Of a stretch of 64,000 bases of DNA, positions 1,110-57,166 are shown piece after piece. The notes under the pieces are model-generated. The model was not told the DNA's origin. It searched no databases and was given only the letters and a program-made list of their open reading frames with translations. Made by a program: the position numbers and the translations under genes. Source of the DNA: Escherichia coli (GTDB lineage: Bacteria; Pseudomonadota; Gammaproteobacteria; Enterobacterales; Enterobacteriaceae); assembly GCF_001677475.2 (NCBI RefSeq), contig NZ_CP015229.1, one strand, 5' to 3'. Each line of letters starts with the position of its first letter. Within the stretch, counting starts at the first letter, position 1.

Positions 1110-1191
1110 CTTTTCACCAAAAAGTAGTCAAATTAACCACGCCCTGCGCACCGTCGCGGGGCGTTTTGCTGTTAAATCAACAGATTATTTT

Positions 1192-1207
1192 TGGCATGAT
1201 TCTTGTA
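1192..1207 (+). promoter_or_regulatory. putative sigma-54 (-24/-12) promoter for pspG
   Basis: TGGCAT-N5-TTGTA about 35 bp upstream of the pspG ATG; pspG is a known PspF/sigma-54 regulon member. Confidence 0.45.
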
Positions 1208-2634: not shown

Positions 2635-2716
2635 GTGTCCTCCAGAACGTATCGTCAGGGTCTGCTTCATATGGTAAAGTTTCGACCCATTCTTTATCTC
2701 GGTAACTCCATTCACT

Positions 2717-4132
2717 ATGGCAGGAAATAAACCCTTCAACAAACAGCAGGCTGAACCCCGCGAACGCGATCCACAAGTTGCCGGGCTGAAAGTGCCTCCG
2801 CACTCGATCGAAGCGGAGCAGTCGGTGTTGGGCGGTTTAATGCTGGATAACGAACGCTGGGACGATGTAGCCGAGCGTGTGGTGGCAGACGATTTTTACA
2901 CCCGCCCACACCGCCATATCTTTACTGAAATGGCGCGTTTACAGGAAAGCGGTAGTCCTATCGATCTGATTACCCTTGCGGAATCGCTGGAACGCCAGGG
3001 GCAACTCGATAGCGTCGGTGGATTTGCTTATCTGGCAGAACTGTCAAAAAATACGCCAAGTGCGGCGAACATCAGTGCTTATGCTGACATCGTGCGTGAA
3101 CGTGCCGTTGTTCGCGAGATGATCTCGGTTGCGAATGAGATTGCCGAAGCCGGTTTTGATCCACAGGGGCGCACCAGCGAAGATCTGCTGGACCTGGCTG
3201 AATCCCGCGTCTTTAAAATTGCCGAAAGTCGTGCAAACAAAGACGAAGGCCCGAAGAACATCGCCGATGTGCTCGACGCCACCGTGGCGCGTATTGAGCA
3301 GTTGTTTCAGCAGCCACACGATGGCGTTACCGGGGTAAACACCGGTTATGACGATCTCAACAAAAAAACCGCTGGCTTGCAGCCGTCGGATTTGATCATC
3401 GTCGCCGCGCGTCCGTCGATGGGTAAAACGACATTTGCGATGAACCTCGTCGAAAACGCGGCGATGTTGCAGGATAAACCGGTACTTATCTTCTCGCTGG
3501 AGATGCCATCAGAACAGATTATGATGCGTTCTCTGGCGTCGCTGTCGCGCGTTGACCAGACTAAAATCCGTACCGGGCAGCTCGATGATGAAGACTGGGC
3601 GCGCATTTCCGGCACCATGGGTATTTTGCTCGAAAAACGTAATATCTATATCGATGACTCCTCCGGCCTGACGCCAACGGAAGTGCGTTCCCGCGCGCGC
3701 CGTATTGCCCGTGAACACGGCGGCATCGGGCTTATCATGATCGACTACCTGCAACTGATGCGCGTACCGGCGCTTTCCGATAACCGTACGCTGGAAATTG
3801 CAGAAATCTCCCGCTCGCTGAAAGCACTGGCGAAAGAACTGAACGTGCCGGTGGTGGCGCTGTCCCAGTTGAACCGTTCTCTGGAACAACGTGCCGACAA
3901 ACGTCCGGTCAACTCTGACCTGCGTGAATCTGGCTCTATCGAGCAGGATGCGGACTTGATCATGTTTATCTATCGTGATGAGGTGTATCACGAAAACAGT
4001 GATTTAAAAGGCATCGCGGAAATTATTATCGGTAAACAACGTAACGGCCCAATCGGGACGGTACGCCTGACCTTTAACGGTCAATGGTCGCGCTTCGACA
4101 ACTATGCGGGGCCGCAGTACGACGACGAATAA
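2717..4132 (+). CDS. dnaB: replicative DNA helicase
   Basis: 471 aa; Walker A GKTTF, RecA-like C-terminal domain; size identical to E. coli DnaB. Confidence 0.95.
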   Translation: MAGNKPFNKQQAEPRERDPQVAGLKVPPHSIEAEQSVLGGLMLDNERWDDVAERVVADDFYTRPHRHIFTEMARLQESGSPIDLITLAESLERQGQLDSVGGFAYLAELSKNTPSAANISAYADIVRERAVVREMISVANEIAEAGFDPQGRTSEDLLDLAESRVFKIAESRANKDEGPKNIADVLDATVARIEQLFQQPHDGVTGVNTGYDDLNKKTAGLQPSDLIIVAARPSMGKTTFAMNLVENAAMLQDKPVLIFSLEMPSEQIMMRSLASLSRVDQTKIRTGQLDDEDWARISGTMGILLEKRNIYIDDSSGLTPTEVRSRARRIAREHGGIGLIMIDYLQLMRVPALSDNRTLEIAEISRSLKALAKELNVPVVALSQLNRSLEQRADKRPVNSDLRESGSIEQDADLIMFIYRDEVYHENSDLKGIAEIIIGKQRNGPIGTVRLTFNGQWSRFDNYAGPQYDDE

Positions 4133-35944: not shown

Positions 35945-38092
35945 TTACGCCAGTGCCGCTTCGCGCAGGCGAGTTTTCAACTTGTTGTACTCGTCAATCA
36001 CGTACTGCTCGGCGGCGCGCTGATCGGCGATCGGCTCGACGCGCACGGCGCAGTATTTGTATTCCGGCGTTTTCGTAATCGGGCTTAAGTTTTCGGTAAC
36101 CAGCTCGTTACAGGCACCAATCCACCACTGGTAGGTCATATAAATCGCCCCTTTGTTCGGACGATCGCTGACCTGCGCACGGGTGATAATTTTGCCTTTA
36201 CGCGAGTGCACCCAAACCAATGCCTCATCTTCAATACCCAGACGTTTGGCGTCTTCGGTATTGATTTGTGCGTAGCCAGGTTCATCAGCCAGCGCCGCCA
36301 GTGCCGCACAGTTACCGGTCATCGAACGGCAAGAGTAGTGACCAACTTCACGCACCGTTGACAGTACCATCGGATACTCGTCGGTGAGTTTGTCGATTGG
36401 CGCTACCCAGTCGCAGGTGAAGAACTGCGCCAGACCGTTCGGGGTATCAAACTTCTCTTTAAACAGATAAGAAGTCCCCTGATCGGCATCTGAAGTATCG
36501 CGGCAAGGCCACTGAATGAAGCCCAGTTCGCCCATTTTCTCGTAAGTCGCACCGTAGAAATCCGGGCACAGATGACGCAACTCATCCCAGATCTCCTGGG
36601 TGTTGTTGTAGTGCATCGGATAACCCATACGGGTGGCGATTTCACTGATGATTTGCCAGTCCGTTTTCAGATCCCATTTCGGTTCAACCGCTTTGAAGAA
36701 ACGCTGGAAGCCACGGTCAGCCGCAGTAAACACGCCTTCATGCTCGCCCCACGACGTTGACGGTAAAATAACATCCGCCGCCGACGCGGTTTTGGTCATA
36801 AAGATGTCCTGAACGATGACCAGTTCCAGATCTTCAAAGGCTTTACGTACTGCCGACAGCTCCGCGTCAGTTTGAAGCGGATCTTCGCCCATAATGTACG
36901 CGGCACGCACTTCACCATGCGCTGCGCGGTGCGGCAGCTCGCTGATGCGATAACCGGTATGAGCAGGCAGGCTTTCCACGCCCCAGGCTTTGGCGAATTT
37001 CTCGCGGTTAGCCGGATCTTTCACGTACTGGTATCCCGGATACGTATCCGGCAGCGCGCCCATATCGCAGGCACCCTGCACGTTGTTCTGACCACGAACC
37101 GGGTTTACACCCGCATGCGGCTTACCGAGGTTACCGGTCAGCATCGCGAGGCTGGTCAGAGAACGCACGGTTTCCACGCCCTGGTAGAACTGGGTTACAC
37201 CCATGCCCCACAGGATGGCGGCGCTTTTCGCCTGGGCATACATCCGTGCCGCCTGACGAATCTCACTGGCGCTGACGCCGGTGATATCTTCAACCGACTC
37301 CGGCGTGTAGCCTTCAACGATTTTACGATACTCTTCAAAGCCTTCTGTACGGGAAGCGACGAAAGCTTTGTCGTACAGGTTTTCTTCAATAATGACATGA
37401 CCCATCGCATTCAACAGCGCGATGTTCGAGCCGTTTTTCAGTGCAATGTGCATGTCAGCAATGCGCGCGGTTTCAATTTTGCGCGGATCGCAGACGATAA
37501 TTTTCGCCCCGTTACGTTTAGCGTTAATTACGTGGTTCGCCACGATTGGGTGGGAATCCGCCGGGTTGTACCCGAAAACGAACACTAAATCGGTATTATC
37601 AATTTCGTTAATAGCATTGCTCATTGCGCCATTACCGACCGATTGGTGCAGACCTGCAACCGATGGGCCGTGTCAGACACGAGCGCAGCAGTCAACGTTA
37701 TTGGTACCAATAACGGCGCGCGCAAATTTTTGCATTACATAGTTGGTTTCGTTACCCGTACCACGCGAGGAGCCGGTCGTCTGGATGGCATCCGGACCGT
37801 ACTTCTCTTTGATGGCGCTCAGGCGCTCGGCAACGTAATTCAGTGCCTCATCCCAGGAAACAGGTTCGAGTTTGCCGCCACGCTGGCGACGGATCATGGG
37901 GGTTTTCAGGCGCGGGGTCAGGATCTGGGTATCGTTAATGAAGTCCCAGCCATAATAACCCTTCAGACACAGGGTACCCTGGTTGGTTTTCCCCTGCGCT
38001 GCCTCCGCCCGGACGATTTTGCCGTTATCGACGACCAGGTTGATTTTGCAACCTGATGCGCAATAGGGGCAAACCGTGACGACTTTTTTCAT
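35945..38092 (-). CDS. fdhF: formate dehydrogenase H (selenoprotein; UGA at codon 140 decoded as selenocysteine)
   Basis: two same-frame ORFs (139 aa + 559 aa) separated only by TGA at 37673..37675; N-terminal CPYCASGCKINLVV 4Fe-4S motif; total 715 codons. Confidence 0.95.
37625..37672 (-). ncRNA. SECIS element (mRNA stem-loop directing SelB-dependent Sec insertion)
   Basis: sequence immediately 3-prime of the in-frame UGA (CACGGCCCAUCGGUUGCAGGUCUGCACCAAUCGGUCGG) can fold as a hairpin. Confidence 0.8.
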
Positions 38093-38142
38093 CGGTCTCG
38101 CTCCAGTTAATCAAATCACGCATACGCGCTCTCGACTACAGT

Positions 38143-38159
38143 ATGCATCTTTTATGCCA
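38143..38159 (-). promoter_or_regulatory. sigma-54 promoter of fdhF
   Basis: minus strand TGGCATAAAAGATGCA matches the GG-N10-GC -24/-12 consensus, about 50 bp upstream of fdhF start. Confidence 0.7.
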
Positions 38160-38289
38160 CATTTTATTTGGGGTCATTCCCTGATATTACGGGCACTATT
38201 TATTCAAAACTCTGACGAAAAACAGGCTGTCGTCAGTTTTGACGTGACGAAACGAAATACCGCGTGACAGCCATCACGCGGCAGACATT

Positions 38290-39756
38290 TTATTTTTTCT
38301 CGACGACGGGACTTGCCTGATACCCGCCGCCCAGCGATTTCATCAACTGAATGCTTTGGATCACCCGGCGGCTGTCCAGCATCAGTAATGACATCTCCTC
38401 GGCAAGCACTGGCAACCGGGCTTCGGTGGCCTGTAAGCGGCTGGTTAAGCCGCGTTGATAGGCGGCCTCGGCAGCGCGCTGGGTGAAGCGCGTTGCTTCC
38501 ACGCGTTCAGCCTGCATCTCTCGCTCGTCGTTGAGCGTTTGCAGACGCGTGCCGTTGACGGCAACGTCGCGCACCGCATTCAGCACTGACTGGTTGTAAC
38601 GTTCAATCATCATGTTGCTGGCGGCGCGAGTGCCTTCGAGATTGGCATTCAACCGTCCACCGTCAAACAGCGGCAATTTCAGACCTGGGATAAAGTTGAA
38701 CTGGCGACTGGTTTTTTTGAATAAGGTATCCAGGTGGATAGAATCCAGGCCGAAAAACGCTTTGATATCAAAGCTCGGATAGAACAGCGCCCGCGCGGAA
38801 TCCACCTGATCTAATGACGCCTGAACATACCAGCGCATAGCTTGCAGATCCGGGCGTCTGGCGAGCAACTCATAAGAGAGTGTCGCCGGAATACCGGTCT
38901 GGACTTGCGGTAATGCCACCGGTTTGATCTCCGGCATATCGCTGGCTCCCGCGCCAATCAATGCACGCAGAGATTCTCGCGTTTCGGTGATTTGCCCTTT
39001 AACGGCAGCAATTTGTTTATCGACCGCCAGAATCTGTGCCCGCGCGCCGTGGAAAGGCACTTGCGCTTCCAGACCGTGCGCCACTTTACTCTGGTGCGCT
39101 TTCACCGCGTAATCAATCACATCGCGTGTTTGTTCTAACAGATCGAGCATCTGATAGCTGGCCTGCATACTGTAATAAAGCTGCGCTACGCCCGTGGTCA
39201 GCGATAGTTCTACTGCTGCGGTTTCTGCCAGCGCTGCATTATGCGCGCCAATGGCGGCGGCAACCGCTGAGCGATGCACACCCCACAAATCAAGATCCAG
39301 TCCGGCAAACAAACCGACTGTGGCTTCCGTATAGTACGGCCCGTCCATCCCCAGTGCGGGCGCATCCATCGCATAAGGGCTTAAAAAGCCGTTCGCCGAG
39401 ACACGTTGGCGGTTGAGCATCCCTAACGCTGCGACCTGTAATTGTGAACCGGCATCTAACAAATCGGCCTGCGACTGCGCTTTTTCTTCCCGCAGTTTCG
39501 CTTCGGCGAGGGTGTGTGAACCACTTAGCGTCCGTTGGATCAGTGCATCCAACTGCGGGTCATTGAGTTGTTTCCACCACTGCGCCTGCGGCCAGCCGGA
39601 GCTGGCAAGATGAATATCATCGGCCAGTTTGATTTGTTCCGGTTTGAGCTGTTGATGAGGCGCAGAATCCTTACGTACCAGGGCACAGCCGGAAATCAGC
39701 GTCGTGCTGCCGAGAATGCTGCACAACAGCAGGCGTGAAAGTTGACGATTGATCAT
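38290..39756 (-). CDS. mdtP: outer-membrane efflux factor (OMF/TolC-like lipoprotein)
   Basis: 488 aa; lipoprotein signal (LISGCA); OMF family. Confidence 0.9.
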   Translation of the reverse strand: MINRQLSRLLLCSILGSTTLISGCALVRKDSAPHQQLKPEQIKLADDIHLASSGWPQAQWWKQLNDPQLDALIQRTLSGSHTLAEAKLREEKAQSQADLLDAGSQLQVAALGMLNRQRVSANGFLSPYAMDAPALGMDGPYYTEATVGLFAGLDLDLWGVHRSAVAAAIGAHNAALAETAAVELSLTTGVAQLYYSMQASYQMLDLLEQTRDVIDYAVKAHQSKVAHGLEAQVPFHGARAQILAVDKQIAAVKGQITETRESLRALIGAGASDMPEIKPVALPQVQTGIPATLSYELLARRPDLQAMRWYVQASLDQVDSARALFYPSFDIKAFFGLDSIHLDTLFKKTSRQFNFIPGLKLPLFDGGRLNANLEGTRAASNMMIERYNQSVLNAVRDVAVNGTRLQTLNDEREMQAERVEATRFTQRAAEAAYQRGLTSRLQATEARLPVLAEEMSLLMLDSRRVIQSIQLMKSLGGGYQASPVVEKK

Positions 39757-56377: not shown

Positions 56378-57166
56378 TCAGGCAGCTTTCGCGTTTTCTT
56401 CGACGCGGTTGATGCTGCGGTAGAGATGGTCAAAACGTTCGTTATCAAACTGTTGGCTGCTGCCGTCGTAGAAGACGTGCCCCTGGCGCAGGGCGACGAT
56501 GCGTTCGCAGTAGCGCAGGGCGTAATCCACCTGATGCAGCGTGACGACCACGGTAATGCCGTCGTTCTGGTTAATGTCGCGCAGGGTGTCCATCACGATG
56601 CGCGCCGATTCCGGGTCCAGCGAGGCGATGGGTTCATCGGCCAGAATTACCTTCGCCTGCTGCATCAGCGCGCGGGCAATCGCCACACGCTGCTGTTGCC
56701 CGCCGGAGAGGGTGGAAACGCGCTGATGGGCAAAATGCACCATGCCAACGCGGGTCAGCGCCTGTAACGCGCGCTGTTTCTGCTCGCGGGTGAACCAGCT
56801 AAAACAGGTGCGCCAGAATGGCGTGCTGCCGAGCGCGCCAATCAGCACGTTCTCCAGTACGCTCAGGCGATTCACCAGGTTGAATTGTTGGAAGATGTAG
56901 CCGGTGTTGGCGCGGCTTTTGCGGATATCGCGGGCCAGGCGGCCTTCGCGCTGGACTGTGCGGCCCAGCAGCTCGATATGGCTACCGGCAGATTTATCGC
57001 CGGTAATCAAACCGCTTAAGTGACGTAAAAGGGTGGATTTGCCGGAACCCGACGGCCCAAGCAGAGCCACCATTTCACCGTGATGAATGTTCAGATCAAC
57101 CGCGTGCAGCGCCTGATGCTGATTGAAGGTTTTGGCGAGCTTCTCGACACGGATAATCGTTTGCAT
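56378..57166 (-). CDS. phnC: phosphonate ABC transporter ATPase
   Basis: 262 aa; Walker [13 protein letters not shown] signature LSGGQQQR. Confidence 0.95.

Follow-up and report, generated by a model that had tools for sequence, protein, structure and literature searches.

An FhlA-type enhancer core and a probable mdtP terminator adjoin upstream of the sigma-54 promoter of fdhF in Escherichia coli

Genes and promoter at the locus

The interval 38093-38289 of the window (the whole 64,000-nucleotide stretch of DNA that was analysed) is the 197-nt mdtP-fdhF intergenic region of the E. coli chromosome, read on the minus strand. The interval was found in 5419 of 5426 complete E. coli genomes, with at least 99% identity in 5289 records, and thousands of E. 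coli genomes carry it with 100% identity. The gene order in the identical genomes is mdtN-mdtO-mdtP-fdhF-yjcO, and in the window all of these genes lie on the minus strand. The region is bounded upstream by the mdtP stop codon TAA (38290..38292, minus strand), which closes an ORF at 38290..39756 (minus strand) that is annotated as mdtP in the identical genomes. At its other end, the Shine-Dalgarno sequence GGAG (38104..38101) and the annotated ATG of fdhF (38092..38090) together occupy 38090..38104 on the minus strand, and the sequence AACTGGAGC was nearly invariant across 17 genera. The fdhF frame is broken by an in-frame UGA, as expected (ORFs 37673-38092 and 35945-37624), and a SECIS_2 match of 87 bits was located at 37626-37680 (minus strand), just 3' of this codon. 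A search for RNA families found none known within the intergenic region, only the fdhF SECIS farther downstream. The earlier note on this DNA had called the gene fdhF; this call is correct, because it agrees with the mdtP/fdhF order annotated in the identical genomes, the in-frame UGA and the SECIS_2 match.

The same note had pointed to a -24/-12 element, which we confirmed at 38159..38144 (minus strand) as the sequence TGGCATAAAAGATGCA, with its GG at 38158-38157 and its GC at 38146-38145. It matches a documented sigma-54 promoter: in E. coli, the sigma-54 ChIP-seq site OS41 upstream of fdhF has the motif GTGGCATAAAAGATGCA, 41 nt from the gene start, and the window element is identical to this published motif (PMC4591121). 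The promoter is therefore the documented E. coli fdhF sigma-54 promoter, its occupancy being known from the literature. Salmonella fdhF has a sigma-54 ChIP-chip site, TGGCATAAAACATGCATA, at the orthologous place; its expression is sigma-54-dependent by microarray, and the gene is listed as FhlA-activated (PMC3844500). TGGCATAAAAGATGCA showed the exact GG/-24 and GC/-12 spacing of sigma-54 promoters (TGGCAC-N5-TTGCW) and scored 13.4 bits with a published RpoN matrix of 186 promoters, ranking fourth in the window. It was also the sole match to TGGCAYNNNNNWTGCW in the 64-kb window, which alone is weak evidence because 0.61 matches were expected by chance. In the 17-genus alignment described below, the promoter hexamers TGG.AT and TGCAT were invariant. 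When the C of the -12 GC (38145) was taken as -12, the predicted transcription start (+1) fell at 38133 on the minus strand, 41 nt before the ATG, in agreement with the 41-nt distance in PMC4591121. A sigma-70 promoter scan yielded nothing within the interval.

Other sites of the sigma-54 type were seen in the window. With the RpoN matrix, three sites, at 56908 (plus strand), 39832 (plus strand, inside mdtO) and 29662 (minus strand), scored above the fdhF promoter (14.1-15.5 bits). Either chance or non-promoter binding by sigma-54, as described across whole genomes, may account for them. The sequence TGGCATGATTCTTGTA at 1192-1207 (plus strand) matches the published pspG sigma-54 promoter motif (PMC4591121), and a perfect IHF consensus, AATCAACAGATTA, lies directly upstream of it at 1175-1187 (plus strand). 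The fdhF 5'UTR itself contains a small palindrome, GCGCGTATGCGT (38118-38129, minus strand; about +5..+16), which had the variants GCGCATATGCGC, GCGCGTCCGCGC and GCGCGCAAGCGC in other genera and was absent in the short-leader Enterobacter and Kosakonia. As a conserved RNA hairpin this palindrome was rejected, the consensus fold being weak (3 pairs, -0.8 kcal/mol).

Repeats and a conserved core upstream of the promoter

The earlier note had described GTCGTCA, TGACG and CGTGACA repeats in a block at 38221-38280, about 100 nt upstream of the promoter. With +1 at 38133, this block spans -88..-147, and the repeats were indeed present at or near those coordinates. In plus-strand coordinates, TCGTCA (38230-35) pairs with TGACGA (38245-50), CTGACGA (38212-18) with TCGTCAG (38230-36) and GGCTGTC (38225-31) with GACAGCC (38266-72); copies of CGTGAC occur at 38243 and 38263, and an inverted repeat is formed by CCGCGTGA (38260-67) and TCACGCGG (38274-81). 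Repeat enrichment was assessed by comparing counts in 38205-38285 with those in 2000 dinucleotide shuffles, and the repeats proved far above chance. TCGTCA/TGACGA occurred 3 times against 0.14 expected (reached in none of the 2000 shuffles), CGTCA/TGACG 4 times against 0.53 (1 of 2000), GTCA/TGAC 5 times against 1.19 (3 of 2000) and CGTGAC/GTCACG twice against 0.17 (24 of 2000). No other 81-nt tile in the 64-kb window attained the GTCA, CGTCA and TCGTCA counts of 38205-38285, and the three copies of TCGWCA that the fdhF core holds in a span of 33 nt were the sole such cluster in the window.

For comparison among species, a genome collection was scanned at the species level with the N-terminal 139 residues of FdhF, which gave 80 loci. 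These fdhF loci span Escherichia, Salmonella, Citrobacter, Klebsiella, Raoultella, Kluyvera, Enterobacter, Kosakonia, Pluralibacter, Phytobacter and others, out to Arsenophonus. Two alignments were made of the 230-nt stretch that precedes the ATG, one with all 81 sequences and one with a 17-genus subset. The 81 enterobacterial fdhF upstream regions showed a footprint, TCGnCACGTCA-nnnn-TGACGA ... TTTCGTCAG, at 38252..38212 (about -119..-79). Its invariant or near-invariant blocks on the minus strand were TCGnCACGTCA (38250..38240), TGACGA (38235..38230), C38225 and CGnCA (38217..38213), and the invariant columns across the 17 genera read TCG.CACGTCA....TGACGA....C.......CG.CA. The promoter hexamers and the Shine-Dalgarno region were conserved to the same degree, and outside the conserved blocks identity fell to 10-50%.

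On the basis of this footprint and the TCGWCA cluster, the putative FhlA upstream activating sequence has its conserved core at 38212..38252 (minus strand; -119..-79), arranged as TTTCGTCAC, CGTCAAAACTGACG, 8 variable nt and TTTTTCGTCAG. The core thus reaches 38212, farther downstream than the block 38221-38280. At its center lies a 14-bp inverted repeat, the candidate FhlA box CGTCAAAACTGACG (38231..38244, minus strand; -111..-98), with direct TTTCGTCA half-sites on either side. The arms of the box, CGTC and GACG, were fixed among orthologs, and its spacer drifted (AAAACT, AAATAT, AATTTT, ACTTTT); fixed arms with a drifting spacer are the usual signature of a dimeric DNA-binding protein. The proximal part, TTTTTCGTCAGAGTTTTGA (38204..38222, minus strand), is a possible half-site or degenerate second box, in which TTTTTCGTCAG and GTTTTG were 70-99% conserved. 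It scored only 4.56 bits with the published FhlA matrix described below, and its TTTTCGTCA recurs unchanged at the start of the second hycA-hycB box, TTTTCGTCAAAAATGACA.

The distance between the box and the promoter was also conserved. A -24/-12 element was present in 78 of the 81 orthologs, and in 77 of these 78 a box of at least 7.5 bits lay 60-130 nt upstream of it. From the start of the box to the first G of the -24 GG, the distance was 86 nt in 59 of the 78 orthologs, 87 nt in 4, 77 nt in 8 and 100-101 nt in 4. The GG-to-ATG distance ranged from 50 to 83 nt across orthologs, while the spacing between box and promoter stayed near-fixed. This near-invariant 86-nt spacing argues for a helical-phase constraint. 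Among the divergent lineages, Atlantibacter (L076, L077, L081) had a box of another sequence, TGATAATAATGACA, at 101 nt from the -24 GG, and Arsenophonus (L080) had a near-consensus box, TGTCATTTATGTCG, at 87 nt. Three fdhF homologues (L075, L079 and L082, at about 2700-3000) were without the -24/-12 element, and their enhancer core was degraded too; they may represent copies under different regulation or loci undergoing decay.

Between the enhancer and the promoter, the block CCGTAATATCAGG (38180..38192, minus strand; -59..-47) showed 50-90% column conservation. The IHF consensus WATCAANNNNTTR had no match with at most one mismatch anywhere in 38093-38289. An IHF-assisted promoter at fdhF was accordingly rejected: no IHF consensus at this threshold lies between enhancer and promoter, and CCGTAATATCAGG is not an IHF consensus. 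Upstream of the enhancer, Enterobacter/Lelliottia-type loci (L011, L046, L048, L057, L063 and similar ones, at about 2780-2850) carried a conserved element of about 60 nt, GTTAAGTCTGAACCATTCTGCC..GGCTCCAGCC, followed by GTGACGGAAATTCAA.

Relation to other FhlA-dependent promoters

Reviews describe FhlA as binding ahead of both fdhF and hyc and as activating them in response to formate (PMC11291172; PMC4987338). A study of Proteus FhlA provides a matrix built from 13 characterised FhlA sites, with the 14-position consensus TGWC-RAWRAT-GWCA (PMC7658346). The best match to this published matrix in the fdhF upstream region was the invariant box CGTCAAAACTGACG, with 8.56 bits, a modest score that ranked 68 of about 128,000 window positions and that alone is roughly a 1-in-10 chance event per 100-nt region. 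The fdhF box lies outside the training set of the matrix in this register, because no training site has C at position 1 and the box starts with C in both orientations. When applied to the E. coli hyc/hyp region, the published matrix gave its two top matches at hycA-hycB (16.4 bits) and hycA-hypA (15.4 bits).

A reciprocal matrix was then built solely from the fdhF-ortholog boxes, and 18 kb of E. coli hyc-hyp-hydN were scanned with it. In these 18 kb its top match (18.2 bits) was in the hycA-hycB intergenic region and its third lay upstream of hydN; the hycA-hypA box was absent from its top 10. Its second-best match, GGTCACATTTGACG, is intragenic (L002 11418-11431, inside hycB) and is either a chance match or a real site. 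In the E. coli hycA-hycB intergenic region (L002 11860-11960), two strong FhlA-type boxes, TGTCGAAAATGACA and CGTCAAAAATGACA, lie at a distance of 31 nt from each other; they were the best matches in the 18 kb to both matrices. This two-box region is the distant enhancer for hyp. Between the hyc box and its own -24 GG the distance is 88 nt, compared with 86 nt at fdhF. A cluster rule, requiring at least 3 copies of TCGWCA in 60 nt, selected the fdhF enhancer alone in the window and the hycA-hypA and hycA-hycB intergenic regions alone in the 18 kb. With at most one mismatch, TTCGWCA was found in 2-4 copies in each FhlA-dependent region compared. The hyfA upstream region gave weak matches to either matrix, which neither help nor hurt the assignment.

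These results bear directly on a comparison that the earlier note had proposed, that of the repeats with other FhlA-dependent promoters. By the reciprocal matrix the motif is shared with hycA-hycB and hydN, and by the published matrix and the cluster rule with hyc/hyp. Because the motif is common to other FhlA-dependent promoters, the failure of conservation elsewhere that the note had named as counting against its reading was not observed. A review also quotes, second-hand from Leonhartsberger 2000, an idealised 16-mer FhlA consensus, CATTTCGTACGAAATG (PMC4987338). By hand count, the best registers in the fdhF region matched this sequence at about 7-9 of 16 positions; its left half, ATTTCGT, is present at 38259..38253 and was not conserved among orthologs. 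Since the 16-mer is idealised and quoted second-hand, its lack at fdhF does not exclude the site from the FhlA family. Taken together, the invariant core, the matrix match, the fixed 86-nt spacing and the reciprocal matrix support the view that the repeat block contains an FhlA-type enhancer. Our full-text literature search turned up no paper giving an FhlA footprint on fdhF.

The inverted repeat downstream of mdtP

The distal part of the block forms a terminator-like hairpin at 38258..38283 (minus strand), UGCCGCGUGA-UGGC-UGUCACGCGGUA, followed by the T-rich tail TTTCGTTTCG (38257..38248). It begins 7 nt past the mdtP TAA and overlaps the distal edge of the fdhF enhancer. The terminator scan returned it with 11 pairs, 6 of them GC, a 4-nt loop and the tail TTTCGTTTCG, and the RNA fold had an energy of -19.9 kcal/mol (z = -3.35). 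The scan alone is not significant, because it found 2 sites in 1.2 kb where 1.5 were expected. The T tract is interrupted (TTTCGTTTCG). A stem-loop with a T tract just past a stop codon, as seen here, is characteristic of intrinsic terminators.

Among the 81 loci, the gene directly preceding fdhF was mdtP only in Escherichia, some Kluyvera, Pseudocitrobacter, Superficieibacter and Salmonella arizonae. The full G+C stem was present in mdtP-linked Escherichia, Kluyvera, Pseudocitrobacter and Salmonella arizonae and was found only where mdtP lies upstream; Superficieibacter had a partial stem with two broken pairs, and the 5' arm was gone where another gene replaces mdtP. Pairing was kept through two-sided changes (CGCGTGA/TCACGCG versus CGCATGA/TCATGCG, GC to AU): in 11 mdtP-linked sequences from few and related lineages, 8 pairs were kept, 2 of them with compensatory changes. 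Because the full stem is limited to mdtP-linked loci, has compensatory changes and loses its 5' arm elsewhere, we read the distal inverted repeat at 38283..38258 as probably the intrinsic terminator of mdtP (mdtNOP).

The 3' arm of the hairpin contains a conserved GTCAC (38264..38268, minus strand; -135..-131; 60-80% column conservation), a possible distal FhlA half-site. In 61 of 78 orthologs, some of them from lineages that lack an upstream mdtP, GTCA[CT] preceded the box by 21-25 nt; 52 of these 61 had it there alone, and 9 had a second copy at 38 nt. Since GTCAC is kept without mdtP and the corresponding Kluyvera repeat scores about 11 bits with the FhlA matrix, the 3' arm may also serve as a distal FhlA half-site.

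The conservation of GTCAC raises the alternative, implicit in the earlier note, that the whole of 38205-38285, including CCGCGTGA-N6-TCACGCGG, is FhlA enhancer and that the repeat serves as a palindrome for protein binding and not as an RNA terminator. Besides the retention of GTCAC 21-25 nt upstream of the box even without an mdtP neighbour, Kluyvera ascorbata (L027), which has no mdtP upstream, retains GTGATAAATGTCAC with the inner GTGA..TCAC, the outer stem being lost; in Kluyvera the repeat scored 11.1 bits with the published FhlA matrix, and Enterobacter-type loci have GTGAC-N15-GTCAC at the same place. The upstream activating sequence of fdhF defined by deletions in 1989 reportedly extended to about -140, which also counts for this alternative. 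Several observations oppose it: the full 8-11 bp G+C stem is limited to loci with mdtP ending just upstream, its compensatory changes are a signature at the RNA level, lineages without mdtP show no conservation of the 5' arm, and the E. coli distal repeat reaches only 5.2 bits with the FhlA matrix. We consider an enhancer that takes in the whole repeat block rather unlikely, although enhancer and terminator roles of the distal repeat are not mutually exclusive.

The inner palindrome, cGTGA-N6-TCACg, could alternatively be a CRP-type site exerting catabolite control of fdhF or of the mdtP end. The CRP consensus is TGTGA-N6-TCACA, of which the distal repeat, as read from the sequence, matches 8 of the 10 core positions, and GTGA-N6-TCAC is retained in Kluyvera. 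Against a CRP site, Salmonella arizonae (N5) and Pseudocitrobacter deviate in the spacing and the 5' arm is missing in most genera, so that a CRP site was rejected as highly improbable; to our knowledge, control of fdhF by CRP has not been reported. That all the repeats are a functionless chance feature of a short G/T/C-rich intergenic region has practically no likelihood left. Single repeats of 6-8 nt are common, and many of the two-copy families (e.g., CCTGAT and ACATTTTATTT) are probably due to chance, but chance accounts neither for the shuffle tests and a cluster unique in the window nor for a core that is invariant in 17 genera while its flanks diverge. The footprint across 81 sequences and 17 genera, the shuffles and the fixed spacing to the promoter refute it. 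The proposal that the block 38221..38280 is an activating site thus stands insofar as the block contains an FhlA-type enhancer; the core of that enhancer is 38212-38252, and the distal repeat is likelier the mdtP terminator.

Discussion

The mdtP-fdhF intergenic region is best described as two adjacent, partly overlapping modules, namely a probable terminator of mdtP and a control region of fdhF with a sigma-54 promoter and an FhlA enhancer near -100. We assign this description a probability of about 0.93. The G+C-rich hairpin at 38283..38258 with its T-rich tail would most likely end mdtNOP transcription. In a scheme that follows established knowledge of sigma-54 systems, of bacterial enhancer-binding proteins and of FhlA, sigma-54 RNA polymerase would sit at the -24/-12 element as a closed complex. 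Formate-activated FhlA oligomers at the box and its flanking half-sites would contact the holoenzyme by looping out about 80 bp, and ATP hydrolysis by FhlA would open the promoter. Formate dehydrogenase H would then be made only when formate accumulates in fermentation. FhlA occupancy, formate dependence, looping and terminator activity enter this description from the literature or by inference. A more speculative extension, which we regard as quite unlikely, is that the 3' arm and T-rich tail of the mdtP terminator (GTCAC at -135..-131, TTTCGT) have a dual use, as RNA structure for mdtP and as FhlA-binding DNA for fdhF, and that the 86-/77-nt spacing without IHF reflects helical phasing, with an intrinsic bend or one made by an unknown protein at -59..-47.

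The E. coli fdhF promoter with its FhlA upstream activating sequence is this very locus: the sequence, the sigma-54 motif and the 41-nt leader match, and the enhancer lies near -100. From the late 1980s on, it has served as a textbook case of formate-regulated, enhancer-dependent transcription. The promoter and its activating sequence were reportedly studied by Birkmann & Boeck (1989), Schlensog, Lutz & Boeck (1994) and Leonhartsberger, Ehrenreich & Boeck (2000). Like fdhF, the FhlA sites of hyc/hyp, hycA-hycB and hydN-hypF have clustered (T/C)GTC-N6-GAC(A/G) boxes and TTTCG(A/T)CA half-sites. The fdhF box differs in its outer positions, which are C and G (CGTC...GACG) in contrast to TGTC...GACA at the hyc/hyp/hydN sites, and fdhF has one full box with half-sites in place of two strong boxes. 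NtrC at glnAp2, NorR at norV (three sites) and PspF at pspA and pspG likewise act by looping, from inverted-repeat sites that lie about 80-150 bp ahead of the -24/-12 element. Unlike pspG in the same window, with its IHF site at 1175-1187, fdhF is without an IHF consensus between enhancer and promoter, and its recognition sequence is FhlA-specific. With Rho-independent terminators, 38258-38283 shares an 8-11 bp G+C-rich stem, a 4-nt loop, a T-rich tail and a position 7 nt past the stop codon; it differs from them in its interrupted T tract and in the overlap of its 3' arm and tail with the conserved enhancer DNA of the next gene.

The sigma-54 promoter and the FhlA enhancer of fdhF were thus already known, and the earlier interpretation of this DNA was essentially right; we correct only where the enhancer begins and ends and what the distal hairpin is. 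The terminator reading and the statistics of the 86-nt spacing are additions of the present analysis. The analysis provides precise coordinates for each element of the fdhF control region and keeps the enhancer core distinct from a probable terminator with which it would be fused in a reading based on motifs. The near-invariant arms of the box and the 86-nt spacing, seen across about 80 enterobacterial species, are useful for PfdhF formate biosensors and for annotation of the FhlA regulon.
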